DNA from: Shigella phage JK42
Sequence record: MK962756
Length of the DNA: 64,000 nucleotides
Direction: 5' to 3' (one strand)
Shown: one piece after another, positions 2,520 through 47,502 of the stretch
How positions within the stretch are numbered: the first letter of the stretch is position 1
How the letters are laid out: every line of letters begins with the position of its first letter
Translations under genes and position numbers: made by a program
The notes under the pieces: generated by a model
The model's database searches: none
Told to the model about the DNA's origin: nothing
The model's input: only the letters and a program-made list of their open reading frames with translations

Positions 2520-3620
2520 TTACGCTGTGAAGATTTTATCCCACATCGCAACAACTGCATCTCGGTTATACTTCTTCCATACTGCTTCAGCACGTTTAAC
2601 TCGAGCTTCGTATGTGTCAGTGAATTCTAATACAGCTTTTGTGTAAAGCGCAACTACTTCTTTCTTAGGAGTAGATGAATCAATTTCTACACGCACAGTA
2701 TCTGGGTCGTATTCAAATGTCGCATGAGGATAATCCTTAAAAACTAACTGGATTACAGGGACACCTTTAGAGATGGCTTCAATAGAACTATTCTCTACCG
2801 TACCTGTGTCAGGACAAGTATTAATAAGTGCTTTAGCTGTTTTAAGACGTTCCATGATTTCACTGTGTGGAGCATCAATAATAACAGGATATTTAGCCGG
2901 TGGCGCCCATTTGCTTGGACAGTATCCTGCACCATTTTCGCCTAGTGCTTTAATCGCTTCAAGAGCAACATCAGTACGACGCATTTTAGTGTCATAACGT
3001 TGTGCACTAATAATCAGATCCGTCGCCGGAAGAACTTCTGGCTTTTCAGTCAAACAAATAACCGGATAATCTTCGGCTTCAAACAACGGATTTGCTCGCC
3101 AATAATCATAATCAATTTTGTCAGTCAGACCTGAAGTCATATAACAATATTTACGTTCAAATTCACGGAAGGCTTTAGTAGGAGCATAACTCTTACCACC
3201 ATTCTTATGAATTTGAATAGTCTGGTCCCAAATTTGAACAATGCCACGAGATACCGGTTCAAATGGTGTTGCCATAAAATTCTTATGAACTTTAGAGAGA
3301 CCTGCGTCTTTAATTGCCTGAACGGTTAGTTTAGTCGGTTCCATAGTAACAACAAAATCGTATTCATGAATGCCGGCTAGTTCAACAATCTTACGAGCCA
3401 TAGTATAACTCATACCTAGACTGAATTTAGTCAGATGACCAACAGGATGATGATTAACCTTCCAATCACCAAATGTGTCATTATCAAAGCCGATATAATC
3501 AATATCAGCACCGATGGACACAAGATATTTCAACACATTTAAATGTACTGCTTCAAGACCACCTTGTACACGTTCTGGGTTAAATGGGACTGCGCGAGAT
3601 GGGATAAACATAACTTTCAT
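2520..3620 (-). CDS. GT-B fold glycosyltransferase (GT4-like); candidate DNA hmC sugar transferase
   Basis: 366 aa; N-terminus MKVMFIPSRAVPFNPERVQGGLEAVHLNVLKYL and C-terminal ...TGTVENSSIEAISKGVPVI resemble retaining GT-B enzymes; inserted between rIIA.1 and gene 39 where T4 has gene 60/mobA. Confidence 0.6.
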   Translation of the reverse strand: MKVMFIPSRAVPFNPERVQGGLEAVHLNVLKYLVSIGADIDYIGFDNDTFGDWKVNHHPVGHLTKFSLGMSYTMARKIVELAGIHEYDFVVTMEPTKLTVQAIKDAGLSKVHKNFMATPFEPVSRGIVQIWDQTIQIHKNGGKSYAPTKAFREFERKYCYMTSGLTDKIDYDYWRANPLFEAEDYPVICLTEKPEVLPATDLIISAQRYDTKMRRTDVALEAIKALGENGAGYCPSKWAPPAKYPVIIDAPHSEIMERLKTAKALINTCPDTGTVENSSIEAISKGVPVIQLVFKDYPHATFEYDPDTVRVEIDSSTPKKEVVALYTKAVLEFTDTYEARVKRAEAVWKKYNRDAVVAMWDKIFTA

Positions 3621-5966: not shown

Positions 5967-5968
5967 AA

Positions 5969-23095: not shown

Positions 23096-23644
23096 TTAAC
23101 GAGCCCATTTGATAATTTCTGTAATCAAATAATTACGTTCGCTTGCATTAAATCCTATAACTTTGTTAGCACCATCATGATTAAGTAATTGATACGTTTG
23201 GATTTTGTTATGAATTGCAAACTCTTCAAAATGTGAAATGACTGTATTAAAACCGAATGAAGACAAAGTAATAAGGTCGTCTTCAAAACTTTCAGTCATT
23301 TCGTTACGTGTTAAAATAATTGTGAACACATCATGGTTTTGGCAAAGACGAACATAGTCCTGTTCATAAACGTCAAGAATCGAGTCCGCATCTTGTCGAA
23401 TACGTCCATAAACCCAGTTACTAATATATCCACGGTCTAACAGATAAATCTTAGTAGGGTCTAAATAATTCAACATCGTTTCGAAACAGCCAACTTCATT
23501 TCGAGACTTAACATCGAAACGTCCATCAACTGTTCGTTTAGGGAAATCAATCTTTACATATCTTTCACTAATTTCCATTATGTCATTAATGAAAGTTGTT
23601 TTACCAGCATTATCCGGGCCATCTACTAAAATAATTTTAGCCAT
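23096..23644 (-). CDS. P-loop nucleotide/nucleoside kinase-like protein
   Basis: 182 aa; Walker A ILVDGPDNAGKTT in the thymidylate-kinase/deoxynucleoside-kinase style; occupies the T4 beta-gt locus. Confidence 0.5.
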   Translation of the reverse strand: MAKIILVDGPDNAGKTTFINDIMEISERYVKIDFPKRTVDGRFDVKSRNEVGCFETMLNYLDPTKIYLLDRGYISNWVYGRIRQDADSILDVYEQDYVRLCQNHDVFTIILTRNEMTESFEDDLITLSSFGFNTVISHFEEFAIHNKIQTYQLLNHDGANKVIGFNASERNYLITEIIKWAR

Positions 23645-23645
23645 T

Positions 23646-24545
23646 TTATTCCTCGATTACGACATCTTCATATTTAGGTATATTATACGGCGAAGAAATT
23701 AAAGCATTAAAGTAGATGAACTCACCAAGACCTGGATGGAATACTTCTTCAGGATTTTCGAAATATTGAATTTTCGGACGTCCTTTAAGAATTTGATAGT
23801 ACTCAGTTTTAGTTGGTTTAAAAATTCGAATCAGCGCTTCTTCAGGATACTTATTTCTGTCGAAGCTATTATTTGGATCGGTTATATAAAGCGGTTGACC
23901 TAATTGAATTGCGCATTCAACAACTTGTTCAAAACGATAGCATGGGTCACTAATTCGAAATGGATGAAAAATACCATCTAGATGAATAGGAGCCAAATCA
24001 CCTACAAGACGCTGCATGATGGAAGGACGTATAACTTTCTGCGTTACGATAATCTTATTACCATCTGCACCAGCGTTAACCAGCACTTCTTTTTGACGTT
24101 CATTCAACACAGTAGTTTGAAGTGAACGATTAACCGACAACATATCGGTTTTTAAGAATTCGTCAATATAAAAACGTGGTTTATTAGGGTCTGCAGTGAT
24201 ATTGAAATTGAATTCCACATCAAAAGCGCCGTCATATCCAGTGATATCTGTGATTAGAAAATCACAATCATAATAAGCAATTAATGAATCAACCACAAAT
24301 TCATTTTCAGACCAGAAATATTTACGAGTGTTATACGCGTTATCTTTATACCATAATGGAACAAACTTAAATTCTGGAAAAAGACGTTCGCATTCTTTAA
24401 TATCAGATGCATTACGTGGATATGTAATCACATCACCCGGATTAGCACGGTGCAAATGAAGTTGGAAGTTGCCATCCTTAAGGATAGCATACTGTCCAGT
24501 TTCATAAGACCGCATACTCAAGATAGGTACGCGGAAAATAGCCAT
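23646..24545 (-). CDS. hypothetical protein (beta-gt positional replacement)
   Basis: 299-aa ORF between the kinase-like gene and gene 42; no recognisable motif. Confidence 0.5.
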   Translation of the reverse strand: MAIFRVPILSMRSYETGQYAILKDGNFQLHLHRANPGDVITYPRNASDIKECERLFPEFKFVPLWYKDNAYNTRKYFWSENEFVVDSLIAYYDCDFLITDITGYDGAFDVEFNFNITADPNKPRFYIDEFLKTDMLSVNRSLQTTVLNERQKEVLVNAGADGNKIIVTQKVIRPSIMQRLVGDLAPIHLDGIFHPFRISDPCYRFEQVVECAIQLGQPLYITDPNNSFDRNKYPEEALIRIFKPTKTEYYQILKGRPKIQYFENPEEVFHPGLGEFIYFNALISSPYNIPKYEDVVIEE

Positions 24546-25261
24546 TAGTCAAGGAATCCTTTAACATAATCAAAATCACGTTCAAACACATGGGCACTTA
24601 CCATGGTATGAGTATAATCACCAACTTCTACACCACATTCATTAGCGATATAATGAAGTAATTTTCCTTGGAGATAAAAATCCAACTGCATAACAACAGC
24701 ACAGTTCTGAGAACGCATATGACAGTGGGTATAAAGCTTACCATCACGAATATAATAAGTCACTGAGTCAGTACATGGATATTCAAGCGTTTCGTCCGAA
24801 TCAAGCAAAGCCTGATCAGAACTTTCTAGAATTTGGAACACAACTCTTCGAGAGTTAGGCTTCTCTTTAAGTTCTTTTAGAAGAGCTGGTAATTGAGCCG
24901 CAATGCGAGGACCATAGAAAGTGTTGAAGTTCGCCGGCAAAACATCTGATTTTGGTTTAGAAATAAATTTAGCGACATTAGGATATGCCTTAAACGCTTC
25001 TTCTGCGTTGGTACCACCAGAAATCATAAACTTCCAGAAGTCTTCGGCATATTCATAAGAGATGCGGTTAATACGTGGGTCGGTCATTTTGAATGATGAT
25101 GGAGTGTCAACAACTACTGTCATAGACCCAATTTCATTACAACGTCCAATACGAGAATCAGTTACGAATTCCGGGTTTTCTAAAATTTCACGATTGACTG
25201 CTTTAAATGCGGTTTGAAAATCTGCGGCTTTGATATATTTCATTGTGTTATGTTTTCCCAT
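24545..25261 (-). CDS. 42: dCMP hydroxymethylase (thymidylate-synthase fold)
   Basis: 238 aa; SRRVVFQIL...YPCTDS...YIRDGKLY...HMRSQN aligns by eye with the T4 gp42 / thymidylate synthase active-site region. Confidence 0.7.
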   Translation of the reverse strand: MGKHNTMKYIKAADFQTAFKAVNREILENPEFVTDSRIGRCNEIGSMTVVVDTPSSFKMTDPRINRISYEYAEDFWKFMISGGTNAEEAFKAYPNVAKFISKPKSDVLPANFNTFYGPRIAAQLPALLKELKEKPNSRRVVFQILESSDQALLDSDETLEYPCTDSVTYYIRDGKLYTHCHMRSQNCAVVMQLDFYLQGKLLHYIANECGVEVGDYTHTMVSAHVFERDFDYVKGFLD

Positions 25262-25302: not shown

Positions 25303-25542
25303 TTATTTGAATTTCTTGGCAATGTTGATATAACGTAAAGCTTCAGCATCGATACTTCCAAGAACACTATGAAGAAATGCATCAGCGTAGTATTCCAATT
25401 GAACAGGTTCTTTAATCACTTTAGCCGCTTTAGTTTCAAACAGGCCCATCAGGGCCTTTTTAAGAATTTGTTCATTAGTGTTCAGTTTCATAGTCAAAAT
25501 CTCTTCATTAAGTTGGTGGTTAAAAGTTTTTCTAGAAATCAT
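25303..25542 (-). CDS. hypothetical small protein
   Basis: 79-aa ORF. Confidence 0.4.
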   Translation of the reverse strand: MISRKTFNHQLNEEILTMKLNTNEQILKKALMGLFETKAAKVIKEPVQLEYYADAFLHSVLGSIDAEALRYINIAKKFK

Positions 25543-26714
25543 TCCGGGTACCTCAAAGCGTCATCAGAGTTAGTTATATCAATAATAGATATAGAGTTTT
25601 CTGCTAACCCGTTTTTAGATAATTGACGTTTATAATATCTTTCACAATATGTACACGTCGTCCCGCAGATTTCATTAGCACAATCGAAATCTGGATGTCT
25701 GAACCACCTTTTTTCTAAAAAGCCATCTAACAAAGAGGTTTCAATATTTACTGTATGTGAAAACTCAGTTTCGTTTTCAAGAGTGAAAATAGTCTCTAAA
25801 GGCTTCCACAGTTCTAACAAATTACCTTCAAACTTTTCAGAAGCGTATGCTTCAAGAACTTTCAAAATGTAGTCTGTGCTACCTGTACGTCCTGAAACTT
25901 TGAATTGAGTGATACCAATATCATTATAAAGTTTCAAATCTTGAGGACGAACAAAACGAGTTCTCAGCCAGTTAAATGGGTCTGTATCACGAGCTTTAAT
26001 GCAGTGTTGCATTGGATATCCATTTAAGGATTTAGCATCATCAGCGGTAACATCAGTACTATGGAAAATATAGCAAGAGTCACGATAGCTACAATGTGTT
26101 GTATACCCTTTACCAGCATTAGAACAGAACTCATTTACAAGAACTTCAAATATTATATTGTTCTTATTGCAAAACTCTGCTGCACGCTTCAGGAAAGAAA
26201 CTGAACGGTTCTTATGAATTCCACAGCAGACCTTTTTGATATTATATTGGTCATGCAAGTATTTGATTTGAGTTACAGCATCGACATGTAGAATTGTTGA
26301 AACTTCAATCTCAATGTCTTTATTGACTTCACGAACAATTTCCATAACAACAGGGTTAGCGATAGTAATACGCCATACGCCTATTGACCAAAGATACTGA
26401 ACATAATCCTGAATAGCTTTCTTCTTCCACTCAACTAGTTCTCTTTTTGAACCAGGATTTATCGTGTTGAGTGTATAGTTAAAGCAAATACCTAATTCGT
26501 TACAACGTTTAACGTAATCTTCTAACATCTTTTTGTCAACGTCAGGAAGCCTAAAATCAGGTCTGGCTGCTACAAAAGCCATTTCTCTTGTAGAGCCGTA
26601 TACTTCGTTTATCAAGCTATTAGGATAAGTTTTATTGAGCTCTACGATTTTATCAAGAAGAGCTAAATCAAAATTCGTTCCGATTTTAAAAGTATTCATT
26701 TTTTTGCATCTCAC
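25539..26714 (-). CDS. Cys-rich protein with C-terminal CX4CX3CX2C cluster (possible Fe-S enzyme)
   Basis: 391 aa; ...FCSNAGKGYTTHCSYRDSCYIFH... and ...DFDCANEICGTTCTYCERYY... ; the CGTTCTYC segment fits the CX3CX2C pattern with an aromatic residue before the last Cys. Confidence 0.45.
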   Translation of the reverse strand: MRCKKMNTFKIGTNFDLALLDKIVELNKTYPNSLINEVYGSTREMAFVAARPDFRLPDVDKKMLEDYVKRCNELGICFNYTLNTINPGSKRELVEWKKKAIQDYVQYLWSIGVWRITIANPVVMEIVREVNKDIEIEVSTILHVDAVTQIKYLHDQYNIKKVCCGIHKNRSVSFLKRAAEFCNKNNIIFEVLVNEFCSNAGKGYTTHCSYRDSCYIFHSTDVTADDAKSLNGYPMQHCIKARDTDPFNWLRTRFVRPQDLKLYNDIGITQFKVSGRTGSTDYILKVLEAYASEKFEGNLLELWKPLETIFTLENETEFSHTVNIETSLLDGFLEKRWFRHPDFDCANEICGTTCTYCERYYKRQLSKNGLAENSISIIDITNSDDALRYPE

Positions 26715-26755
26715 GTTAATTGATGCGATGGTTTTTGCAGGTCTTACTTAAATTA

Positions 26756-27157
26756 TTATAGATTTGGTTTATATGATTTAAATGTTTCGAATTCGCCTTT
26801 ATTCATAAGAGCTTTGAATTCATCAGGACGCATAGCTTTGTCGTCGATAATCCAATCATATACTGGTTTATGTGTTAGCAAATTATGGTACTTCAAACCA
26901 ATGTTTTCCAAGTTCTGAATCAGACTTGGGAGAATGTCAATTGCTATACGACCAGGACCTACTGACTTCATACCACGAGCAGTGTAAAGCGTTATGGTAT
27001 GCCCTGCATCATACAGGGCATTAATGGCAGACACCATTTCGACGTCTGGTTTGAAGTTCACGTAATCACGATTGTTATTCCATTCCGTGATGCAATCATC
27101 GACATCAAAACAAAGATTAAGCATGTTTTCTACACGGTGCATTAGATTCGTTCCCAT
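26756..27157 (-). CDS. HAD-superfamily phosphatase-like protein
   Basis: 133 aa; motif I-like FDVDDCIT, later T, K and IIDDK acidic motif. Confidence 0.5.
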   Translation of the reverse strand: MGTNLMHRVENMLNLCFDVDDCITEWNNNRDYVNFKPDVEMVSAINALYDAGHTITLYTARGMKSVGPGRIAIDILPSLIQNLENIGLKYHNLLTHKPVYDWIIDDKAMRPDEFKALMNKGEFETFKSYKPNL

Positions 27158-28827
27158 TGATGAGTGATATCGCCACCGATTGGACGATAGGAAACACCAG
27201 TTTCTTTATCAGTTAGTACCCATTTACCAGGATTTTTTGTAATCAGAGTAGCCGTTACAGGTTCTGCTACGTCATAACTAATAGAGCCGTCCTGAAGTAC
27301 ACGGCCCATGTTACGTAATTGCTTAGTCAGAAGTTCCATACCTTTATAATATGCGGCTACCGCTTTAAGTGGATTATTCTTGAAATAACCACCTAATGCA
27401 ATCCAGATAATTGCCACTGCCAAATGATGATACTCGTTAAACGAACTCATCTTTCCATATTTGTAAACTAATGGATTGATGTTAATAGTCACATTACAAG
27501 TTGTTTCATCAATAGTAAACTGCCCCCAGGTCGGATTAGCATTGAATTCATCATAACCTGAAACAGCATAAAGCACTTTAGCTTCATCATACAATTTTGG
27601 CCCGTAAATCTTGGTTTCGCCAAAATATCCACGAGGGTCGATAAACTTGACTTCGCCGTTATCAGTAATCATAGTATTACTGAAGTTCGGGTCACCATGA
27701 ATAACAGAGTACTGTCCCTGAGAACGGTTATGATAACGAATAAGGTGTTCTAAAGCTTGTTTCAGCATTGGCTTCAGACGTCCAATCTTAGTGTAGTTCA
27801 CATGTGTGATTTTACCAAATGAATCAATCAATGGTTGAATGCTTTCACAACGATCAATAACTTTCGTATAGAATTCTTTAGTGAAATCACGACGAACAGT
27901 TTCAGGACTTACAAAATAAGTGTCTGTGCTGAATTTCAGTGCATCTAAAATTGCATCAATAATTTGTGGACGAGCAAGACTTGATTTTGATTTAATATAT
28001 TCAAATGCCGGCTTACCTTTAATGCGTTCCATTTCAAAGTTATTTTCATTAACAGAAACTAACTGAGGAACTGAATCTGATTTCACTTTCAAATACCACG
28101 AAATCTCATCTTTCTGAAGAGCTCGACCATGTTCGGTTAATGCGAATTTAGTTACAGTTTCTTCGCCAATTTCAACTGCATTAAAACTACGATTAAGTTC
28201 ACGAACTTCATGAGCCTTTTCAAGTTTAGGCATATCACCTAAATCAATTATATTCATAAGCTCTGATTTATTGAATGCGCTGCCGTAAAGGAATTCTACG
28301 AAATCACGTCCTTTGCAGTATTCATGAATTTCCTCATCGGTAGAACCCATATAGAATTCCCAGTCTTTGAACTGATAAATTCCTACAACATTACCACCTG
28401 TTGAACCTACGTTAGTGATATTTTCACCGTCGAAATTATATCGACATTCGTCACCCTTAACATAGATTGCGTTAACATTCCAAGACCATGAACCAAAATC
28501 AGGAATAATATCACACCAGTTAACAATTACATTATGGCCGTCTAAATCTTTGTGTAATTTAGCAAGAGCATAAGCAGAACCATACGCTTCATCAACTGTA
28601 CGAATAGTCACATTGAACCCTTCTTGCTCACAATAAGCTCGAACAGTTTCAGCAAATTTTGAATGAACTACTACAATAATTTCATCTGCGCCAAGGTCAG
28701 AATAAATTGTATACAAATTGCTCAGAATAGTGTCTTGTTTATAATTAACAAGCACCTTAGGAATATGATGCGTTATTGGATACAAACGAGTTGCCAGTCC
28801 AGCACCAAGAATAACAGCTTTTTTCAT
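27142..28827 (-). CDS. bifunctional sugar-1-phosphate nucleotidyltransferase (N-term) / APH-fold anomeric sugar kinase (C-term)
   Basis: 561 aa; N-term MKKAVILGAGLATRLYPITHHIPKVLV resembles RmlA/MurU-type NTases; C-term ...VIHGDPNFSNTMITDNGEVKFIDPRGYFG is the HGDxxxxN...D kinase motif of APH/choline-kinase/AmgK-type kinases. Confidence 0.7.
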   Translation of the reverse strand: MKKAVILGAGLATRLYPITHHIPKVLVNYKQDTILSNLYTIYSDLGADEIIVVVHSKFAETVRAYCEQEGFNVTIRTVDEAYGSAYALAKLHKDLDGHNVIVNWCDIIPDFGSWSWNVNAIYVKGDECRYNFDGENITNVGSTGGNVVGIYQFKDWEFYMGSTDEEIHEYCKGRDFVEFLYGSAFNKSELMNIIDLGDMPKLEKAHEVRELNRSFNAVEIGEETVTKFALTEHGRALQKDEISWYLKVKSDSVPQLVSVNENNFEMERIKGKPAFEYIKSKSSLARPQIIDAILDALKFSTDTYFVSPETVRRDFTKEFYTKVIDRCESIQPLIDSFGKITHVNYTKIGRLKPMLKQALEHLIRYHNRSQGQYSVIHGDPNFSNTMITDNGEVKFIDPRGYFGETKIYGPKLYDEAKVLYAVSGYDEFNANPTWGQFTIDETTCNVTININPLVYKYGKMSSFNEYHHLAVAIIWIALGGYFKNNPLKAVAAYYKGMELLTKQLRNMGRVLQDGSISYDVAEPVTATLITKNPGKWVLTDKETGVSYRPIGGDITHQWERI

Positions 28828-28868
28828 GTTGAAGTCCTCATTGGTAAGTAGGAGTATTGTACACTATT

Positions 28869-29012
28869 CTAGTTAAAGCATTCATACTTTGCTTGTAGTC
28901 CAATCATAATCCATCCAATTACAAGTGTTGGAATCATTACCGGAGCCGTTAAGCTCCAGTAGATAGTCATGACAAGCATCAATAGTAAAAGTCCTATTGT
29001 TATTGCTTTCAT
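28869..29012 (-). CDS. small predicted membrane protein
   Basis: Hand translation: MKAITIGLLLLMLVMTIYWSLTAPVMIPTLVIGWIMIGLQAKYECFN (47 aa); start overlaps the SIS gene stop (ATGA); below the ORF-track cutoff. Confidence 0.3.
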   Translation of the reverse strand: MKAITIGLLLLMLVMTIYWSLTAPVMIPTLVIGWIMIGLQAKYECFN

Positions 29013-29644
29013 TGTTCGCCTCGTAACATGGCACCTAGTGCACCGCCTGGATGGAACTTAAGGAAATCATTAGAGGTAAATCCACGTTCAGACGAAAGGT
29101 TGATAGCAAACGTATCGATAAGTGCTAACAACAATGTAGTGGACATCGTCGGAGCTAAAGAGTTCTCGTCAACTTCTACCGCGATACCGGTGCAGAACGT
29201 ATAATCAAAAAGAGCTTCGTATTCTTGTGGAATGTCAGGGTTACAATGTAACAGAATCTGTTTAACCTGAGGACGAATCATACGAAGATGTTTAGCAACA
29301 CCTATCATTTCTTCAGTTTTACCAGAACGACTAATATGAATCAACACGTCATTAGGCGCAATAAATCCTGCGTCACCATGAGAATAATGCCCGGTGTTCA
29401 AATACATGCTAGGAATACCTAGTGAAGCAAAAGTCTCGGAAGCTTTAGTTGCGATATTAGCATTCTTACCAACACCTGTAATAATTACCCGGCTTTCATA
29501 ATTACTAAGTCCAGGGCGTCGAAGAGTTTCTAGAATAGCATTATAACGAGCAGGGTTTTGACTAATTACTTTAGCCATAGTGGCAAGAGATGAAGCTTGT
29601 TTTACGATTGCGTCAATAGCGATAGTAATAGGAGTAGTTTTCAT
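29009..29644 (-). CDS. SIS-domain sugar-phosphate isomerase, KdsD/GutQ-like (arabinose-5-phosphate isomerase) without CBS domains
   Basis: 211 aa; VIITGVGKNANIATKASETFASLGIPSMYLNTGHYSHGDAGFIAPNDVLIHISRSGKTEE aligns with the remembered KdsD SIS core (GMGKSGHIGKK...HGDLGMV...ISNSGES). Confidence 0.7.
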   Translation of the reverse strand: MKTTPITIAIDAIVKQASSLATMAKVISQNPARYNAILETLRRPGLSNYESRVIITGVGKNANIATKASETFASLGIPSMYLNTGHYSHGDAGFIAPNDVLIHISRSGKTEEMIGVAKHLRMIRPQVKQILLHCNPDIPQEYEALFDYTFCTGIAVEVDENSLAPTMSTTLLLALIDTFAINLSSERGFTSNDFLKFHPGGALGAMLRGEQ

Positions 29645-29684: not shown

Positions 29685-30114
29685 TCAAAAATCAAACATA
29701 TCGAACAGAGATGCTTTCTTCTCGTAATCGAGTTTAGCTGCTGATGTGAATCCTTCAAGTGGTTTAATAAATGTCTTCTCAAGGAGAACAGTGTAGTCCA
29801 TCCAATGAAGTACATCGTCTTTAATTAAATCTGTGATTTCAGTACCAGAAGGCCATGCGATACATTTATCACCGAATGGGTTTCCTTCACGTAAAGGCAG
29901 AACATATACTTTTTCACCTTCTACAACTTGTGGTGCATCAATATTACCTTTGATAGCTCGGTTATATGTCAGAATTCCACGTATATGGAACGGGCATTTA
30001 GGACCCGGGAATCCACCTACGTCGTATTTAGCAATGTTATTCGCAGAAGATACCGACGCGATGCTAATATAATTCAATTGACGGAATTCTTTTTCAAACT
30101 CTTTAAAATATTCT
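29685..30114 (-). pseudogene. detached 3' segment of gene 43 encoding the polymerase C-terminal region and clamp-binding tail
   Basis: In the polymerase frame this segment encodes ...EGFTSAAKLDYEKKASLFDMFDF, the expected gp43 C-terminus; separated from the main ORF by the duplication. Confidence 0.6.
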
Positions 30115-30502
30115 ACTTCATTGGATGGCTGATGTGAATCCTTCAAGTGGTTTAATAAATGTCTTCTCAAGGAGAACAGTGTAGTCCATCCAATGAAGTA
30201 CATCGTCTTTAATTAAATCTGTGATTTCAGTACCAGAAGGCCATGCGATACATTTATCACCGAATGGGTTTCCTTCACGTAAAGGCAGAACATATACTTT
30301 TTCACCTTCTACAACTTGTGGTGCATCAATATTACCTTTGATAGCTCGGTTATATGTCAGAATTCCACGAATATGGAACGGGCATTTAGGACCCGGGAAT
30401 CCACCTACGTCGTATTTAGCAATGTTATTCGCAGAAGATACCGACGCGATGCTAATATAATTCAATTGACGGAATTCTTTTTCAAACTCTTTAAAATATT
30501 CT
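29740..30502. repeat. 375-bp direct repeat, two copies (29740-30114 and 30128-30502), joined by a 13-bp spacer
   Basis: Read directly: copies identical except one mismatch (t/a near 29986/30374); the spacer acttcattggatg is the reverse complement of catccaatgaagt found inside the repeat; period 388 bp is not a multiple of 3. Confidence 0.9.
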
Positions 30503-38180: not shown

Positions 38181-38409
38181 TACACGCTTCAGCCATTTTA
38201 AGAATAGAGCCGGGAGTATCGTTGTCCATTATATTAAAGCTAAATTCAATAGCCCAGTCGGTGCAGACATGAACTGCTTTAACTTCATTGCCTTCAACGC
38301 GTAATGGCTCAATCCAATACTTGATAGTGTTCTCGAATCCATCATCGTCTTTAACGTCCATTTCAACTTCAAGTCCAAGCCCAGCATTATTAAATTCATC
38401 TAAAGTCAT
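38152..38409 (-). CDS. hypothetical small acidic protein
   Basis: 85-aa ORF. Confidence 0.4.
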   Translation of the reverse strand: MTLDEFNNAGLGLEVEMDVKDDDGFENTIKYWIEPLRVEGNEVKAVHVCTDWAIEFSFNIMDNDTPGSILKMAEACIEDAYNGED

Positions 38410-39425
38410 TGTGTTGCCTCAATATAAAGTTCGTTGGAATATTTGACCAGCGCTTCTCTGTCTTCGTCTGAGATATCTGGAATCGCGTCAATATATTCTT
38501 TAATGATATCTTGAAGTGATTTAATCTCGATTTCCTGGTCATCATCAGATTCAACACTGTTATCAACTTTAGAAACCATACGAAGAGAGTGAACTACTTT
38601 TTCAAGTTCAGATTCAAACTTAGTCAACTCTGAATCAATTTCTGATACTATAACACGTACGGCTAGATTAGTATAATCAGAATAATTAATTTTGCCTTTA
38701 AACGGATAAGTGATTCGTCGATGCCATGTTGTTTCATTAGGAATAAATTCCATACGTTCAACATCAGTGTCAAATACCCAGAATCCGCGTGGGTCGTTCT
38801 CATCGCCTGCAGTAAGGGTCCATGGTGTCCCAATATATTTGACGTTAGCAGCTTCAGAGATTGTGTGGAAGTGGCCGGACCAGACTTGTTTATAGGTCTT
38901 TAAGAAATCAGGTTCAAGCCCATGAGACTTCATTCCTTTATAGAAATAAAAGCCATTCAGTTCCCAGTGCCCAACACAATACGCTGCGGAAGAAGTCTTG
39001 ATGTGCTCTAAGATTTCACCTGTATTTTCTTCACACATCCATGGAACGATATCAATCAGACATCCGTCAAAATCTACAGTAGTTGGATGTTCATAAATAG
39101 TAAAGTTTTCAAATTGAGTTAACAATTCAGAAACAGTGTTAGGTGTTATTGTATTCTTAAACGCCATGTCATGGTTTCCTATCGTGACATGAACGTGAAT
39201 GCCTGCTTTAGAAATCATATCAACGATTTCACGATTGAATTCCATTGTACGATGTGTTATTGCTTTACGGACGTCAAACCAATCACCGTACTGAATCCAA
39301 GTTTTAATCCCGTGTTTCTTAGAGTATTCAATTGCTTGACGAATACCATCACGTTGAATATCTTGAACCCATGGGTCGTCTTGTTTGACTCCGATATGGA
39401 AGTCGCCTAAGTGCAAAATTTTCAT
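38406..39425 (-). CDS. 47: recombination endonuclease subunit (Mre11/SbcD-like)
   Basis: 339 aa; MKILHLGDFHIGVK... phosphoesterase motifs GDWFD, GNHD; matches remembered T4 gp47. Confidence 0.9.
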   Translation of the reverse strand: MKILHLGDFHIGVKQDDPWVQDIQRDGIRQAIEYSKKHGIKTWIQYGDWFDVRKAITHRTMEFNREIVDMISKAGIHVHVTIGNHDMAFKNTITPNTVSELLTQFENFTIYEHPTTVDFDGCLIDIVPWMCEENTGEILEHIKTSSAAYCVGHWELNGFYFYKGMKSHGLEPDFLKTYKQVWSGHFHTISEAANVKYIGTPWTLTAGDENDPRGFWVFDTDVERMEFIPNETTWHRRITYPFKGKINYSDYTNLAVRVIVSEIDSELTKFESELEKVVHSLRMVSKVDNSVESDDDQEIEIKSLQDIIKEYIDAIPDISDEDREALVKYSNELYIEATQ

Positions 39426-39477
39426 ATTATTTCCTCATTAGTTAATTCATTTTATCATCCATTTATAAAGCAAAAAA

Positions 39478-39495
39478 GGAACTCCGAAGAGTTCC
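39478..39495 (-). terminator. intrinsic terminator GGAACTC-CGAA-GAGTTCC plus U6
   Basis: 7-bp stem; minus strand continues UUUUUUGCU. Confidence 0.55.
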
Positions 39496-39668
39496 TATCC
39501 ACATAGTACACCGTACAGAGGCTCATTTGAACTTTTAAATCGAATGGGCTTGTATGTAATAGTTCCTTCGGCTTTAGCTTTATCATAAGACTCTTTAAAA
39601 CGTCTCATTCTTTCTGCTTTGCCTTTACGGATTTTATCGAAATTTTCAGAAGTCGGGATGTTCGTCAT
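39495..39668 (-). CDS. small hypothetical protein
   Basis: Hand translation: MTNIPTSENFDKIRKGKAERMRRFKESYDKAKAEGTITYKPIRFKSSNEPLYGVLCG (57 aa); stop abuts the terminator. Confidence 0.3.
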   Translation of the reverse strand: MTNIPTSENFDKIRKGKAERMRRFKESYDKAKAEGTITYKPIRFKSSNEPLYGVLCG

Positions 39669-39707
39669 GCATAAGCACCTCTCAGAAAATACCTAAATCG
39701 ATTTCTC

Positions 39708-39914
39708 TCATCGTTTCCACCATTTCTTAACTTGAAATGAATCGACCCATACGAGTTGTTTTGGGTCTGCCTTTACAATAGGCGGACAAATTTCTGTAAT
39801 AGAACCGTCGTGATATTCCTTTTCAGAAATTTTAACGCAAAGAGGACCACTCAATTTAAGGGTGAACCCTGCGTTCAGCTTCAGACGTTTAAACTTTGTT
39901 TGAACTAGCGCCAT
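39708..39914 (-). CDS. hypothetical small protein
   Basis: ORF-track 39708..39929 shortened to an internal ATG to avoid overlap. Confidence 0.35.
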   Translation of the reverse strand: MALVQTKFKRLKLNAGFTLKLSGPLCVKISEKEYHDGSITEICPPIVKADPKQLVWVDSFQVKKWWKR

Positions 39915-40212
39915 TAATGATGTCCTCAATAGCCTGACGAGTAGTAATCCACTGGATTTTAATTAACTTGTCATTATATGGTTGTCGTAGAATATCCCGA
40001 GATTTCTTAATAGCATATTCATAAGCTTCGAAGTTGTTTTGAATTGCTGCTTCTTGAGCATGAGCATAAAGACGGTTTAGTTCAAAACGATTCTTTTTAA
40101 GAATCTTTTCAGATTTTTTACGTGCTTCAGCTTCATTTTTCTTTTGGATTTCTTGTAGCATTTTAGCTACTGCATCTTCTGCTTCTTTATTTTCAATAAT
40201 CTCGGTAGTCAT
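39889..40212 (-). CDS. hypothetical protein
   Basis: 107-aa ORF, Lys/Glu-rich. Confidence 0.45.
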   Translation of the reverse strand: MTTEIIENKEAEDAVAKMLQEIQKKNEAEARKKSEKILKKNRFELNRLYAHAQEAAIQNNFEAYEYAIKKSRDILRQPYNDKLIKIQWITTRQAIEDIINGASSNKV

Positions 40213-40213
40213 A

Positions 40214-40423
40214 TTATCTCATTAAATTAAAATAAAAACGTCCGTCCTCTTCAATACAGAACTCGTACTCAACCGGGGTCCCATTTATCGAAAATGACAC
40301 GTCATGTGGGTTCAAAGGGTCGATGTCAAAATTAATTTTAAATTCTCGACCCAACAGTTTTACCAAATAAGGGATTGCTTCGTCAAAAGGTTCTTCTAAG
40401 TAGTTAGAGATGTCAATTGTCAT
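40214..40423 (-). CDS. hypothetical small protein
   Basis: ORF-track 40214..40507 shortened to an internal ATG near the gene 55 stop. Confidence 0.35.
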
Positions 40424-40970
40424 CCTCATATAAAAAATCCAAACTAGGCGAATCGCTAACAACTTCCTTCTTTTCAGCCCCAGGAGCTTTATAAGCGGAT
40501 TCTTCATAATGCGTCATTTTATCGTAGATGTCTTGAATAAACGTTTCATCTACCAACGCTACCATATCATCGTCATGACTGTCGTAGACATTATGAACGA
40601 AGTAACTATATTTCTTTGCAACTTCCTTACGTTCTTTTTTGATACGTTGGACAAAAGCATTAAAACAAGCTCGAGTTATGTATGCATGTGGGTTATTGTA
40701 CTTAGTTTCGTCGAAATTATGAAGTCCCTTAATAGAGGCTTCAATCCCATCTGCAATCATCTCCTGCTTCCAAGACTGGGTATATCCTGAAAAGTTGAAA
40801 CGTTTGGACAGGCCTTCGGCGATAAGCATAATTGCTAAACCGATGGTATCATTCTGACGAATAATTTTGTTTGGGTCTTTATTATTTAAGAGCTCCTTTT
40901 TCCACTCGATTATAGCGGCGAGAAGCTCTTTATTATTCACATAGTTATTTTTAGGTTTTTGTTCAGTCAT
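40413..40970 (-). CDS. 55: late-transcription sigma factor
   Basis: ...[74 protein letters not shown]... matches remembered T4 gp55 nearly residue for residue; start set at the Met aligning with the T4 start. Confidence 0.88.
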
Positions 40971-41042
40971 AAGTACCTCTTGGCTCAATTCATAGGTCTA
41001 TTATATCATAATATTTAGAGACCTATCTTAAAGCACGAGATA

Positions 41043-41312
41043 CTATCGGAGCAAACAATAAGCCTGAAACACTTTTTCCATTAAACGTTTGAACTCATGG
41101 ATATCGATATAAAGCTCAGTAAGACCGGCATTATAAAGAAAATCTAAAAAGTTCTCATGTGTTTCGTTATAGTCGCCTTCGTTTAATTGAGATACATGAG
41201 TTTCCCAAAAACCAACACCTTTAACGAATGGAAAATACGTGACTTTCATGTATTCGTCAACATAAAATTCGCCCAGCTTTTCTTCAGTTATACTGATTCG
41301 AGTTAATTTCAT
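41043..41312 (-). CDS. hypothetical small protein
   Basis: 89-aa ORF. Confidence 0.4.
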   Translation of the reverse strand: MKLTRISITEEKLGEFYVDEYMKVTYFPFVKGVGFWETHVSQLNEGDYNETHENFLDFLYNAGLTELYIDIHEFKRLMEKVFQAYCLLR

Positions 41313-44876: not shown

Positions 44877-46690
44877 TGGTGTTTAACCCTATGCATGATT
44901 TCTTTATTTTTACCGAGATTAAATCCGCGTTCGTTCGGATTTCCCAAATAACCACATGTTCTTCTTATTGTGTTCATCTTTTTAGGATCAGTTTCTCCAC
45001 AAATAGAACAAACAAATCCGTTTTCAGTAGGAGTCATTTCATGGGTACTTCCACATGTAAAACATTTATCCACTGGCATATTAACACCAAAATAATCTAA
45101 ATGTTGTGCAGCATAATCCCAGACGGCCTCAAGTCCCTTTAAATTGTTTTTCATATCTGGAAGTTCAACATAAGAAATGTGACCACCTGTCGCTATGAAA
45201 TGATATGGCGCTTCACGAGAAATCTTTTCAAACGGAGTAATATTTTCTTCTACTGAAACATGGAAACTATTAGTGTACCAACCTTTATCAGTAACATCCT
45301 TTACACTTCCATATTTTTCTGTATCAAGTTTACAGAAGCGGTAACAAAGGTTTTCAGCAGGAGTAGAATACAAACTAAAAGCAAATCCAGTTCTTTCGGA
45401 CCACTGTTTAAGATGAGCATTCATTTTAGTTAAAATTTCTTGCCCAATATCACGACCGACAAGAATATTCAATTCGTGAATACCAATGTATCCTAAAGAC
45501 ACTGAACTTCTACCGTTTTTAAATAACTCAATTATGTCGTCATCAGGTTTAAGACGAACCCCGAATGCACCTTCTTGGTAAAGAATAGGAGCAACAGTCG
45601 CTTTAACTCCTTTTAAGGAACTAATTCTACACATCAAAGCTTCAAAACACAGATCCATTCGTTCATTGAACAATTCGATAAATTTCTGTTCATTGAACTG
45701 TGTTCCAATATAAGAATCTAGCGCAATACGAGGAAGATTTAATGTTACAACACCGAGATTATTACGTCCATCAAGAATTTCATTACCAGTCGAATCTTTC
45801 CATACGCTCAAGAAACTACGGCAACCCATCGGAGAAACAGGAACTGAAGAACCGGTAATAGCTTTATTATTCTTAACCGAAATAATGTCAGGATACATTC
45901 TTTTGCTTGCACATTCTAACGCAAGTTGTTTAATATCATAGTTTGGATCATCTTTATAAAGATTAACACCTTCTTCAACAAACATAACAAGTTTAGGAAA
46001 AATAGGAGTTATTCCATCACGACCAAGACCTTTAATGCGGTTTTTAAGAATTGCCTTCTGAATCATTCGTTCAGTCCAGTCAGTTCCCGTACCAAATGTA
46101 ATTGTTACAAAAGGCGTTTGTCCGTTTGAACTAAAGAGAGTATTTACTTCGTATTCATAAGCTTGGAATGCGTCATAGACATCTTTTTCTGTTTTAGATT
46201 GAGCATAATTCAACGCATCAGCGATTTGCCATTTTTCTGCATCTTCAACATGTTTAGCGTATGTGCGTTTAACATAAGGAGAAAGAACTTTATCTACATT
46301 CGCAAATGTAGTTCCGCCATACTGGTGTGAAGCAACTTGTGCGGTAATTTGTGCCATAATTGCAGTAGCAACACCAATCGATTTAGGCGTTTCAATTTGA
46401 GCATTGCCTAATTTAAATCCGTTCTCAAGCATTCCCTTTAAATCTACTAAACAGCAATTAGTAAAAGGCAATGATATACTGTAATCTAAATCGTGAAAAT
46501 GAATTAACCCGGCATTATGAGCATTTACAATATGGCTCGGAAGAATACTACAAGCGATATGTTTAGAAACAATACCGGCCATTAAATCTCTTTTTGTTGG
46601 AAAGACACGAGAATCTTTGTTGGCATTTTCGGTATTTAATTCTTTATCTTTATTTGAAATAAAATTTAAAACATCTTTCTCTAAAGACAT
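44873..46690 (-). CDS. nrdD: anaerobic ribonucleoside-triphosphate reductase
   Basis: 605 aa; C-terminal zinc ribbon CFTCGSTHEMTPTENGFVCSICG and glycyl-radical region RTCGYLG; uninterrupted (no intron). Confidence 0.9.
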   Translation of the reverse strand: MSLEKDVLNFISNKDKELNTENANKDSRVFPTKRDLMAGIVSKHIACSILPSHIVNAHNAGLIHFHDLDYSISLPFTNCCLVDLKGMLENGFKLGNAQIETPKSIGVATAIMAQITAQVASHQYGGTTFANVDKVLSPYVKRTYAKHVEDAEKWQIADALNYAQSKTEKDVYDAFQAYEYEVNTLFSSNGQTPFVTITFGTGTDWTERMIQKAILKNRIKGLGRDGITPIFPKLVMFVEEGVNLYKDDPNYDIKQLALECASKRMYPDIISVKNNKAITGSSVPVSPMGCRSFLSVWKDSTGNEILDGRNNLGVVTLNLPRIALDSYIGTQFNEQKFIELFNERMDLCFEALMCRISSLKGVKATVAPILYQEGAFGVRLKPDDDIIELFKNGRSSVSLGYIGIHELNILVGRDIGQEILTKMNAHLKQWSERTGFAFSLYSTPAENLCYRFCKLDTEKYGSVKDVTDKGWYTNSFHVSVEENITPFEKISREAPYHFIATGGHISYVELPDMKNNLKGLEAVWDYAAQHLDYFGVNMPVDKCFTCGSTHEMTPTENGFVCSICGETDPKKMNTIRRTCGYLGNPNERGFNLGKNKEIMHRVKHQ

Positions 46691-47502
46691 AATTCTAATT
46701 TATCCTTTTGAAATTCTTCGTCTAAATATGGGTTCCAACCCATTTTAAACCTTTTGATGAAATTATCAATTCTAAATTTCGGTAAGTTTAAATCCGCAAA
46801 AATAGATGATTTACTTTTAAAATCTGGACCTAAATAATCATATAAAATTTCTGCGTATTTTAACCATAATATATAAGTACCAGATTTAATTGCTCTCGGA
46901 GTTTTCCAAGGTTTTACGCCGTACATCGGATTTCCACTTCCTTTATGCCTGATAGAAGATGAAATTCCAATTTTAATTTTAGCTTCCTTTGTGTGCGAAA
47001 ATCCATGATGTGGATTTTCTTTCCAGTATTTTTTAGAAGCTTCTGATATTTTCTTTCTGGCTAAATTAGTATGATGCTTTCCATAAAATCCATGATTTTT
47101 ACCTTTATTACGATTTCTTTTAATCATGGTTATTGATTGCTTTTCTCTAGTTTCTTTAGAAGGAGAAACACCGTACGTTGTAAATTGACCATTAGCATAT
47201 GCTAAATTAAAATACTCTTTATTCCATATATCTTTTTCTATATTCTTTTGAAATTCAGCTTCAATGCTAGTTATTTGTTCATCTCCGACTAATTGAAAAT
47301 ATAATATTTCAACTTTCGGTGTTTCTTTCAACAGAGCTTTTTGAAATTCGGAAGATGACGAAGACGAATAATAAAATTTACCATTTTTATCAATAATATT
47401 CGTTCCGTCAAAAGTGCAATTGGTTTTACTTCCAATATAATAATATGGCGGGGTTTTAGCATTAATTCTACTAATAAATGATAGTTTATATACTACATTC
47501 AT
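46681..47502 (-). mobile_element. free-standing GIY-YIG homing endonuclease (Seg-like)
   Basis: 273 aa; N-terminal VYKL...YYIGSKT GIY-YIG-type motif, basic C-terminal region; wedged between 49 and nrdD, overlapping both. Confidence 0.55.

Follow-up and report, generated by a model that had tools for sequence, protein, structure and literature searches.

The interval between genes 47 and 55 spans positions 39426-40412 (987 nt) of the window, by which we mean the whole 64-kb stretch of DNA that was analyzed. An earlier note on this sequence had given exactly these coordinates and had described the interval as holding only a terminator and four ORFs of 57 to 107 aa. Our ORF map and terminator scan agree with that description: the interval contains only four small minus-strand ORFs and one intrinsic terminator. 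The ORFs account for 89% of the 987 nt, and the longest codes for 107 aa. Gene 55 bounds the interval upstream (stop codon at 40413-40415) and gene 47 bounds it downstream in the direction of transcription (ATG at 39425-39423, minus strand). The genes of the locus are as follows.

38406..39425, minus strand: gene 47, SbcD/Mre11-like recombination nuclease subunit (76% amino acid identity to T4 gp47 over 339 aa; Metallophos domain; annotated as 47 in close relatives)
39495..39668, minus strand: a-gt.2 ortholog, 57 aa, basic (Pfam DUF5486, E = 4.5e-28; 95% identical to RB69 a-gt.2, 76% to T4 a-gt.2)
39708..39914, minus strand: a-gt.3 ortholog, 68 aa (PHROG 1648, E = 1e-34; 98.5% identical to RB69, 71% to T4 a-gt.3)
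39889..40212, minus strand: a-gt.4 ortholog, 107 aa (Pfam DUF2654, E = 1.6e-27; 99% identical to RB69, 58% to T4)
40214..40429, minus strand: a-gt.5 ortholog, 71 aa, or 69 aa if the start is at 40423 (Pfam DUF5491, E = 5e-13; 100% identical to RB69, 47% to T4)
40413..40970, minus strand: gene 55, late sigma factor (91% amino acid identity to T4 gp55; annotations of relatives)

The locus is organized as in Mosigvirus, with the order 47, a-gt.2, a-gt.3, a-gt.4, a-gt.5, 55 and high identity to RB69. Gene order, gene sizes, and terminator and promoter sequences match those of RB69 (RB69p066-p071), and the four small proteins match RB69p067-p070 at 95-100% identity. Positions 38400-41000 are 99.0-99.2% identical to many Mosigvirus genomes, and a comparison of the whole window with NicPhage gives 98.2% identity over 62.9 kb. 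This check places the window firmly in Mosigvirus.

Judged by their sequences, the four small ORFs are orthologs of genes that T4 carries besides a-gt and are not replacements for it. The RB69 and mar005P1 records annotate them as a-gt.2 to a-gt.5, names that are positional (from T4) and not functional. The a-gt.5 start, MRMTIDIS, aligns with MRLTINLS of T4. It shares 17 nt with the 3' end of gene 55, an arrangement suggestive of translational coupling between the two genes. AlphaFold2 predicted a-gt.3 and a-gt.5 with low confidence (pLDDT 43 and 60), and Foldseek matched nothing in the PDB at E <= 0.001. From its sequence, the a-gt.4 ortholog is probably mostly helical; a-gt.4 is also mentioned in one comparative-genomics paper. 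Word-index searches for homologs of the small ORFs returned 2-5 clusters each.

We considered the idea that a-gt.2 to a-gt.5 have an accessory role in DNA hypermodification generally, such as targeting or regulating whatever sugar transferase is present, which would make this still a modification locus. In Tequatrovirus and Jiaodavirus these genes lie in close linkage with a-gt, and the arabinosylating Mosigvirus phages have kept them. However, the gene with which they show conserved linkage, including the 17-nt overlap, is gene 55 rather than a-gt. Even a Krischvirus and an Acinetobacter phage have homologs of a-gt.4 and a-gt.5 directly after gene 55. Homologs of a-gt.3 and a-gt.2 are present in genera that lack a-gt (those of a-gt.3 occur in Karamvirus and Winklervirus as well as in Jiaodavirus), and Pfam, PHROGs and NCBIfam assigned no domain of known function to the small ORFs. 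An accessory role is thus unlikely, and we favor the reading that these genes make up the usual closing part of the transcription unit of gene 55.

A predicted terminator and middle promoter ahead of gene 47

The 69-nt spacer ahead of gene 47 contains a TTCG-loop terminator fused to a predicted MotA-box middle promoter. It carries the following features.

39496-39472, minus strand: intrinsic terminator with an 8-bp stem, AGGAACTC-TTCG-GAGTTCCT followed by TTTTTT (scan and folding)
39466..39475, minus strand: MotA box TTTTGCTTTA (consensus match; overlaps the terminator T-tract)
39449..39454, minus strand: predicted sigma-70 -10 element TAAAAT of the gene 47 middle promoter (homologous to the T4 PmobB -10; kept in RB69, VR7 and JS98)
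39436-39433, minus strand: Shine-Dalgarno sequence GAGG for gene 47

The terminator shows the sequence features of Rho-independent termination, a stable hairpin and a U-tract downstream of a stop codon, and its 5' arm overlaps the stop codon of a-gt.2. It folds at -13.9 kcal/mol (z = -3.4), and 0 of 200 shuffles folded as well. RB69 has the identical sequence, T4 has a homologous hairpin after a-gt.2, and in most other genera sampled an equivalent TTCG hairpin lies ahead of gene 47 (or 47.1). A search of Rfam at E <= 1 over 39000-41200 found no structured RNA.

The MotA box has the consensus (a/t)(a/t)(a/t)TGCTTtA and lies 12 +/- 1 bp from the -10 element (PMC2988021). The match in the window, at 39475-39449 (minus strand), reads TTTTGCTTTA, 11 nt, TAAAAT. 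No other such site occurs on the minus strand between 38300 and 41200, and the regular expression used here also recovers PmobB and P47 of T4. Both are mapped middle promoters (Hinton 2010), and the PmobB start site at 38682 was mapped experimentally (Hinton 2010, Table 1). The gene 47 promoter would start transcription near 39443. The motA gene is annotated in the relative NicPhage, at a position outside this window.

We also evaluated a late promoter candidate. The T4 late promoter consensus is TATAAATA, which TATAAATG at 39467-39460 resembles. We do not claim a late promoter at this site because it reads TATAAACG in RB69.

Homology to T4 suggests that both the terminator and the middle promoter function in this phage. 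The gene 55 transcription unit would then run through a tail of a-gt.5, a-gt.4, a-gt.3 and a-gt.2 and be closed by the intrinsic terminator. The U-tract of the terminator passes straight into the MotA-box promoter, from which transcription would restart into genes 47 and 46. The promoter homologous to T4 PmobB appears to feed gene 47 directly here.

Searches for glucosyltransferase genes

The earlier note held that no ORF of the interval has glycosyltransferase features and that beta-gt is missing. We searched the window by tblastn with T4 a-gt, T4 b-gt, RB27 ba-gt and a-gt from the Jiaodavirus Mineola. The best E-value of the a-gt, b-gt and ba-gt queries anywhere in the window was 0.14 (best values for a-gt, 0.14-1.5), and none matched within the interval. 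With T4 b-gt and RB27 ba-gt as queries, the window yielded no match at E < 1; this covers the 42-uvsX locus, the place of these genes in T4 and RB27. The top score of an HMM built from T4 and Mineola a-gt was 3.1 bits for six-frame fragments of the interval, and over the window as a whole it did not exceed 2.5 bits. Domain and family searches of the interval were likewise negative for glycosyltransferases. Pfam at E <= 1 returned DUF5486, DUF2654 and DUF5491 only, NCBIfam returned zero matches, and PHROGs returned only families of unknown function plus a single 'head maturation protease' label, which we take to be an annotation artifact. Both statements of the earlier note therefore hold.

A highly divergent, split or degraded a-gt might in principle be hidden in the small ORFs or in other frames of the interval, and the earlier note had named such a gene as the case that would overturn its claim. 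Profile searches of the six-frame fragments did not detect one. The best a-gt HMM score, 3.1 bits (E = 0.08 in the 48-fragment set), fell on the a-gt.5 frame, and tblastn, Pfam, PHROGs and NCBIfam were all negative. A gene for a-gt takes up about 1,200 nt and has to encode a two-domain GT-B fold (two Rossmann domains, ~300-400 aa), whereas the ORFs here code for 57-107 aa. ORFs orthologous to genes that T4 carries beside a-gt make up 89% of the interval, and only 7 nt of it are non-homologous to T4. We regard a hidden a-gt as vanishingly unlikely.

Genome-wide absence was tested on the complete 170-kb genome of the 98%-identical NicPhage; for the phage itself, the search covered the 64-kb window. 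We found no a-gt, b-gt or ba-gt in the NicPhage genome (best E = 0.04), and tblastn with T4 b-gt and RB27 ba-gt against it gave a best E-value of 0.83.

The a-gt slot in T4 and other genera

We aligned the interval to T4, in which, as the earlier note had stated and the T4 annotation agrees, a-gt lies between genes 47 and 55. In a blastn comparison, window positions 39305-39427 correspond to positions 3328-3450 of the T4 sequence (L003) and positions 39435-40600 to 5677-6788. A single 2,226-bp cassette (47.1, a-gt and mobB) is missing from the window, and 7 nt stand in its place.

39428..39434, minus strand: junction, the only 7 nt without a T4 counterpart (blastn against T4)

The two phages have homologous genes 47 and 55 on the flanks, a homologous block from a-gt.2 to a-gt.5 and, directly after a-gt.2, a homologous TTCG hairpin with a MotA-box promoter (PmobB in T4). 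They differ in that T4 carries the extra 2,226 bp between this promoter and gene 47, made up of mobB, a-gt, a second hairpin/promoter module (P47) and 47.1. In phages of the T4 type, the a-gt cassette sits between a PmobB-like promoter and a second, similar terminator/promoter module, with the homing endonuclease gene mobB also part of the cassette in T4.

The sequence 'AAAATGAATTA' is common to the window and the start of T4 mobB and could be read as a mobB remnant or deletion scar. We rejected this interpretation on the evidence of VR7 and JS98: neither has mobB, yet 'TAAAATGAA..AACT' lies downstream of the -10 element in both. By this comparison, 'TAAAATGAA..AACT' is best described as conserved promoter or leader sequence.

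The gap might instead be a recent deletion or an assembly artifact peculiar to this sequence. One feature elsewhere in the window does look assembly-like, a near-exact 375-nt tandem duplication in gene 43. However, the uninterrupted 47-55 stretch is present in 146 independent phage records, including RB69. The a-gt.2-promoter-47 junction also occurs in the Gaprivervirus VR7, in the Dhakavirus JS98 the promoter leads into 47.1-47, and the promoter sequence is conserved in both. There is next to no chance that the gap is private to this sequence.

We compared the slot across T4-like genera. Among the genomes sampled, a-gt occupies the slot only in Tequatrovirus and Jiaodavirus (e.g., Mineola). 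The slot holds no glycosyltransferase in the sampled genomes of Gaprivervirus, Dhakavirus, Karamvirus, Winklervirus, Krischvirus and Acinetobacter phages; VR7, JS98, Pet-CM3-4, CHI14, Konradin and Aragogtheria all lack one there. VR7 and JS98 resemble the window in having no a-gt, the same a-gt.5 to a-gt.2 block, and a promoter of the form TTTTTTGCTTTATA...GATAAAATGAA..AACT..GAGGA that leads into 47 (VR7) or 47.1-47 (JS98). They differ from it in that their small proteins share only 30-61% identity with their counterparts in the window and in that JS98 keeps 47.1. In phage records overall, a-gt was found in 657, with ~504 at >= 80% identity and 143 at 60-80%. Records named for Escherichia include 348 with a-gt and 500 with the 47-55 region, and the gap of ~152 matches the ~153 Mosigvirus-like records.

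The history of a-gt can be read in more than one way. T4 and Mineola share 67% identity in a-gt and 70.5% in the flanking gp47, values that fit equally well with old vertical inheritance followed by several losses and with an old transfer. PmobB-like modules upstream and P47-like modules downstream surround a-gt in T4 and RB27, and hairpins surround it in Mineola. It is possible, though we hold it as doubtful, that a-gt is a mobile cassette lying between two modules of a TTCG-hairpin terminator and a MotA-box middle promoter, and that recombination between these flanking modules may excise or insert the transferase cleanly. Such recombination would leave an intact a-gt.2-promoter-47 junction across whole genera.

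A related model exists for composite promoter-early/stem-loop (PeSL) cassettes, which have been proposed to shuffle as modules in T4-type phages (PMC2839356, PMC4122927). Like PeSLs, the a-gt slot has a short composite terminator/promoter motif repeated on either side of a variable gene cassette. The a-gt gene of T4 and RB27 is flanked by similar modules of a hairpin, (T/A)GCTTTATA and a -10 element. The two differ in that PeSLs were defined with early promoters in hyperplastic regions, whereas the promoters here are predicted to be of the MotA-dependent middle class. If a-gt is a mobile cassette, the PeSL shuffling model would extend from early to middle promoters, and the Mosigvirus junction would be an excision footprint left after the lineage switched from hmC to 5-hydroxycytosine. 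The comparison documents the a-gt slot as a clean cassette site bounded by terminator/middle-promoter modules, which is relevant to engineering T4-like phages with swapped DNA modifications.

The a-gt-less layout is the normal one for RB69-like phages (Mosigvirus) and has been described before (RB69 annotation; Petrov 2010; Thomas 2018). The RB69 annotation and a 2010 review covering T4-related genomes already recorded that RB69-type phages have no glucosyltransferase genes, and the observation carries little weight as a discovery.

Arabinosylation genes and DNA chemistry

The earlier note took the absence of a-gt and beta-gt as support for a glucosylation-independent DNA modification strategy. 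The empty slot on its own proves little, because it is the common state outside Tequatrovirus and Jiaodavirus. In CC31, for example, a-gt is missing although b-gt and ba-gt are predicted to be encoded (Petrov 2010). The positive evidence for glucosylation independence is a predicted arabinosylation cluster elsewhere in the window. Orthologs of RB69 gp3, gp45, gp46:47, gp48, gp50, gp51, gp52:53, gp55 and the dCTPase gp56 are all present in the window at 96-100% amino acid identity. The main genes are listed below.

2520..3620, minus strand: GT-B glycosyltransferase, ortholog of RB69 ORF003c/gp3 (99.2% identical to RB69p003; near-identical to PDB chain 9iqz_H, E = 2e-248)
23646..24545, minus strand: putative first DNA arabinosyltransferase (RB69 gp46:47), GT-B, intact 299-aa ORF
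24545..25261, minus strand: predicted thymidylate-synthase-family 5-hydroxy-dCMP synthase (RB69 gp48; 99% identical to RB69p048, 25% to T4 gp42; Pfam Thymidylat_synt)
25539-26714, minus strand: U32-like protein (RB69p050; Pfam U32)
26756-27157, minus strand: phosphatase (RB69p051)
27142-28827, minus strand: fused nucleotidyltransferase/kinase (RB69p052:53; Pfam NTP_transferase)
29009-29644, minus strand: SIS arabinose-5-phosphate isomerase (RB69p055; Pfam SIS)

The predicted 5-hydroxy-dCMP synthase gene stands where T4 has gene 42, and the activity has been demonstrated for the RB69 enzyme (PMC13326640). The arabinose-precursor genes (25539..29644, minus strand) are 97-99.7% identical to RB69p050, p051, p052:53 and p055, and their roles were proposed in PMC13326640 (Table 1). 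RB69 gp3 is the proposed second arabinosyltransferase (PMC6024577, PMC13326640). Its ortholog at 2520-3620, outside the 47-55 interval, would be the functional counterpart of the missing a-gt. PDB chain 9iqz_H is titled 'Glycosyltransferase subfamily 4-like...'; literature searches with the PDB codes 9IQZ and 9IR0 found only unrelated iridium chemistry and no structure paper.

These assignments suggest a pathway in which the thymidylate-synthase homolog would produce 5-hydroxy-dCMP and the two GT-B glycosyltransferases would add one or two arabinose units from a phage-made nucleotide-arabinose donor, with the enzymes acting in the proposed order. This phage would have no need for a-gt because hydroxymethylcytosine is not made. 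DNA glycosylation itself does not appear to have been abandoned, given the two predicted GT-B enzymes encoded at 2520-3620 and 23646-24545. The window phage would differ from T4 in making and arabinosylating 5-hydroxycytosine, whereas T4 makes and glucosylates hmC.

The chemistry of the genus agrees with this prediction. Arabinose on cytosine was identified in 2018 (Thomas 2018) and refined in 2026 to mono- and di-arabinosyl-5-hydroxycytosine. DNA of the Mosigvirus type has been shown chemically to carry arabinosylated 5-hydroxycytosine instead of glucose (PMC6024577, PMC13326640, PMC13390438). RB69 DNA contains both the mono- and di-arabinosylated forms (PMC13326640), and NicPhage DNA contains 5-ara-dC and 5-ara-ara-dC in a ratio of 1:4 (PMC13390438). 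Together, the gene cluster in the window and the DNA chemistry of the genus support the glucosylation-independent reading.

We also weighed the alternative that a-gt or another DNA glucosyltransferase has been relocated and that the phage still glucosylates its DNA. Accessory genes do shuffle among T4-like genomes, CC31 illustrates the loss of a-gt with predicted retention of other glucosyltransferases, and the visible part of the genome is limited to 64 kb. However, neither the window nor the complete NicPhage genome, with its 98.2% identity, contains an a-gt, b-gt or ba-gt match, and BlastP found no glucosyltransferase in RB69 (Thomas 2018). The hmC acceptor would not be made, the gene 42 homolog being a predicted 5-hydroxy-dCMP synthase, and it is arabinose, not glucose, that is found on NicPhage and RB69 DNA. 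Relocation is very unlikely.

We conclude that the window very probably derives from a Mosigvirus in which the a-gt-less 47-55 interval is the usual last part of the gene 55 unit and the genes for cytosine arabinosylation lie elsewhere in the window. RB69-like phages have no glucosyltransferase between 47 and 55, very probably because their cytosines carry arabinose, attached through those genes, and the a-gt cassette is absent here as it is in most other T4-like genera. The observations behind this conclusion are the gene content and orthology, the indel boundaries, the conservation of the terminator and promoter, and the lack of any a-gt, b-gt or ba-gt homolog; no evidence contradicts the conclusion on gene content. 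Assignments of this kind are relevant to genome-based prediction of sensitivity to modification-dependent restriction systems.

The window differs from RB69, with which it shares the arabinosylation set at 96-100% identity, by point differences only. The split genes p046/p047 and p052/p053 of the RB69 record are single intact ORFs here. The RB69 46/47 split has been attributed to a sequencing error (PMC13326640), and the intact ORF in the window agrees with that correction.

Gene content of the interval between genes 47 and 55

The earlier note had described the interval between genes 47 and 55, the site of the alpha-glucosyltransferase gene (a-gt) in T4, as holding only a terminator and four ORFs of 57 to 107 aa. 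Every detail was borne out, and the bounds of 39426-40412 are exact. The minus strand carries every gene in this part of the window. Four ORFs, which are 95-100% identical to RB69 a-gt.2 to a-gt.5, fill 89% of the 987-nt interval, and the only non-coding stretch of any length, 69 nt, runs from the a-gt.2 stop codon to the gene 47 ATG.

Features of the interval and its flanks (percentages are identities to the T4 counterpart)
38406-39425, minus: gene 47, 339 aa, 76%
39436-39433, minus: Shine-Dalgarno GAGG of gene 47
39475-39449, minus: predicted middle promoter, TTTTGCTTTA-N11-TAAAAT
39496-39472, minus (coding strand): predicted intrinsic terminator of canonical form, AGGAACTC-TTCG-GAGTTCCT then TTTTTT
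39495-39668, minus: a-gt.2 orthologue, 57 aa, Pfam DUF5486, 76%
39708-39914, minus: a-gt.3 orthologue, 68 aa, no Pfam match, 71%
39889-40212, minus: a-gt.4 orthologue, 107 aa, Pfam DUF2654, 58%
40214-40429, minus: a-gt.5 orthologue, 71 aa, Pfam DUF5491, 47%
40413-40970, minus: gene 55, 91%

T4 has a-gt plus the same four genes, and the four ORFs are therefore no stand-in for a-gt. Their names reflect position in T4 and nothing functional.

We found no glycosyltransferase among the four ORFs. Pfam (E <= 1) returned only DUF5486, DUF2654 and DUF5491, PHROGs placed the ORFs in families of unknown function, and NCBIfam gave no match. An a-gt gene takes up about 1,200 nt, and only 7 nt of the interval fail to align with T4. 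Across the whole 64 kb, tblastn with T4 a-gt, b-gt, 47.1 and the homing endonuclease gene mobB reached a best E of 0.2, in agreement with the earlier claim that beta-gt is missing; Mineola a-gt and the T2-type ba-gt of RB27 reached 0.14. To catch a split or divergent a-gt, we ran a profile of the a-gt proteins of T4 and Mineola unfiltered; its best scores were 3.1 bits against all six-frame fragments of the interval and 2.5 bits over the whole window. The complete genome of the Mosigvirus NicPhage, which matches the window at 98.2% identity across 62.9 kb, likewise held no match to a-gt, b-gt or ba-gt (best E = 0.04).

The junction ahead of gene 47

Alignment with the T4 locus (L003, blastn) gave two blocks, 39305-39427 with 3328-3450 and 39435-40600 with 5677-6788. 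Seven nt of the window (39428-39434) replace 2,226 bp of T4, which consist of 47.1, a-gt and mobB (an HNH homing endonuclease gene); the T4 annotation thus places a-gt where the earlier note had put it. RB69, the type member of Mosigvirus, has a layout identical to that of the window (annotated 47, a-gt.2, a-gt.3, a-gt.4, a-gt.5, 55).

Just downstream of a-gt.2, T4 and the window are homologous, with a TTCG-loop hairpin followed by TTGCTTTATAAAT and TAAAAT. The terminator hairpin folds at -13.9 kcal/mol (z = -3.4), and none of 200 shuffles was as stable. The predicted promoter fits the published MotA-box consensus and spacing (PMC2988021). A MotA-box/-10 regular expression that picks up both T4 PmobB and T4 P47 found this one site only on the minus strand of 38300-41200. 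The T4 counterpart of the module is PmobB, a MotA-dependent middle promoter with a mapped start site at 38682 (Hinton 2010, PMC2988021, Table 1), and by likeness to PmobB we predict a transcription start near 39443. Rfam (E <= 1) found no structured RNA in 39000-41200.

A second, similar module follows a-gt in T4 and the T2-type phage RB27 (hairpin AAGGGCTTCGGCCCTT, then TAGCTTTATA, then GATATAAT) and in T4 is the mapped promoter P47 (PMC2988021). Two terminator/middle-promoter modules therefore flank the a-gt cassette, whereas Mosigvirus has one, directly before gene 47. Gaprivervirus VR7 shares the a-gt.2-promoter-47 junction of the window, while Dhakavirus JS98 reads a-gt.2-promoter-47.1-47; the promoter sequence is common to all three. 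We rejected AAAATGAATTA in the spacer as a remnant of the mobB start because it also follows the -10 in VR7 and JS98, which lack mobB.

The T4 late-promoter consensus is TATAAATA, which TATAAATG at 39460-39467 (minus), overlapping the 3' end of the MotA box, resembles. We did not retain it as a late promoter: RB69 has TATAAACG at this position and T4 has TATAAATT, and TATAAATG is therefore probably a mere piece of middle-promoter spacer.

The flanking modules resemble the PeSL elements proposed for modular shuffling in T4-type phages (PMC2839356, PMC4122927). PeSL elements are defined for early promoters, whereas the a-gt modules are middle promoters, and any recombination between the two modules is hypothetical. 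Between T4 and the Jiaodavirus Mineola, a-gt is 67% identical, and the flanking gp47 and gp55 are 70.5% and 79% identical. These values would fit long co-residence of a-gt in both lineages with loss elsewhere; an old transfer of the cassette into a conserved slot would fit them equally well.

Distribution of a-gt and of the small genes

The region 38400-41000 is 99.0-99.2% identical to many Mosigvirus genomes (among them vB_Eco_mar005P1, APCEc01, JK45, NicPhage, AlbertHofmann) and is present uninterrupted in 146 records. Only small ORFs separate genes 55 and 47 in Karamvirus Pet-CM3-4 and Winklervirus CHI14, and only two do so in Krischvirus Aragogtheria and Acinetobacter phage Konradin. In several cyanophage and Ackermannviridae-like records, annotations for gene 47 and for a sigma factor coincide with the gp47 match or adjoin it, an indication that the two genes lie close together there.

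T4 a-gt matched 657 records by tblastn, about 504 of them with an identity of >= 80% and 143 with one of 60-80%; by the organism names among the matches listed, these classes are Tequatrovirus and Klebsiella/Raoultella Jiaodavirus, respectively. Mineola carries a-gt in the same slot between two TTCG hairpins, without mobB or 47.1. The 47-55 region occurs in 500 Escherichia-named records and a-gt in 348; the difference of about 152 agrees with the roughly 153 Mosigvirus-like records. Petrov et al. (2010, PMC2993671) tabulated a-gt as "T-even type phages only", reported gene 42 and 56 homologues and no glucosyltransferases in RB69 and JS98, and found a-gt absent from CC31, for which b-gt and ba-gt were predicted. 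We conclude that the empty slot is not unusual. It is the standard published Mosigvirus organization; because several genera share the slot, on its own it says little about DNA chemistry.

Linkage of the small genes is conserved with gene 55, not with a-gt. In all genera sampled, a Krischvirus and an Acinetobacter phage among them, gene 55 is followed by homologues of a-gt.4 and a-gt.5; those of a-gt.3 and a-gt.2 occur in Karamvirus, Winklervirus and Jiaodavirus. In the window, a-gt.5 starts within the last 17 nt of gene 55 (40413-40429). The annotated overlap is equal in T4, RB27, VR7, JS98, Mineola, CHI14, Konradin and Aragogtheria (eight genera or types), which suggests conserved translational coupling of a-gt.5 to the late sigma factor. 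AlphaFold2 models of a-gt.3 and a-gt.5 had pLDDT of 43 and 60, and Foldseek found no PDB match at E <= 0.001. Homologue searches for the small ORFs were shallow; as speculation, their products may be small accessory proteins of the early or middle phase, made together with the late sigma factor.

The Mosigvirus and T4 versions of a-gt.2 lack a zinc-ribbon-like CxxC...CxxC extension at the N-terminus, which the homologues of Jiaodavirus (L006, 3674-3931), Karamvirus (L007, 3158-3406) and Winklervirus (L008, about 3060-3296) carry. In CHI14 the last 22 codons alone are annotated, and the open frame runs on upstream.

The arabinosylation gene set and other differences

The earlier note had read the missing glucosyltransferases as support for a glucosylation-independent DNA modification. 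This interpretation is correct, as judged by the gene set below and published chemistry, and it is established knowledge. RB69 DNA carries arabinose, not glucose; BlastP found no a-gt, b-gt or ba-gt homologue in RB69, and ORF003c (366 aa) was proposed as an arabinosyltransferase (Thomas et al. 2018, PMC6024577). The revised structure is mono- and di-arabinosylated 5-hydroxycytosine, with 5-hydroxy-dCMP made by the thymidylate-synthase homologue RB69 gp48; gp46:47 and gp3 were proposed as sequential arabinosyltransferases, together with a gene set for nucleotide-arabinose synthesis (Lee et al. 2026, PMC13326640). NicPhage has 5-ara-dC and 5-ara-ara-dC at 1:4 (Durham Collection paper, PMC13390438). 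The RB69 arabinosylation genes are all in the window, at 96-100% identity.

Counterparts of RB69 arabinosylation proteins in the window
2520-3620: gp3, near-identical to solved PDB chain 9iqz, annotated GT4-like glycosyltransferase
14710-15228: gp56 dCTPase
23096-23644: gp45 kinase
23646-24545: gp46:47, single intact ORF
24545-25261: gp48, only 25% identical to T4 gp42
25539-26714: gp50, Pfam U32
26756-27157: gp51
27142-28827: gp52:53, fused, Pfam NTP_transferase
29009-29644: gp55 arabinose-5-phosphate isomerase, Pfam SIS

T4 a-gt puts glucose on the hydroxymethyl group of hmC; JK42 would make no hmC, and an a-gt gene would therefore have no substrate. Glycosyltransferases as such appear not to have been abandoned, since the window encodes two predicted GT-B enzymes at other sites.

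The 2520-3620 product, a putative second arabinosyltransferase, is essentially identical to the protein solved in PDB 9iqz and 9ir0 (369-residue chain). The RB69 reference annotates p046/p047 and p052/p053 as split genes; each pair is one intact ORF in the window (299 and 561 aa), and the first of these lends support to the published reading of the RB69 46/47 split as a sequencing error.

Gene 43 (DNA polymerase) contains a near-exact 375-nt tandem duplication at its 3' end (29740-30114 and 30128-30502, with a 13-nt junction). The frame is split into an 888-aa ORF that ends prematurely (30118-32784) and a 172-aa ORF with the true C-terminus (29685-30203), whereas NicPhage has one copy of the unit and RB69 an intact annotated 903-aa gene 43. 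The duplication could be an assembly artefact or real; if real, the polymerase would lose its C-terminal tail, which binds the sliding clamp. An insert of about 870 nt (46632-47497), absent from NicPhage, separates the gene for the anaerobic ribonucleotide reductase from gene 49, and its ORF (46681-47502, minus, 273 aa) has a NUMOD3 motif typical of homing endonucleases.
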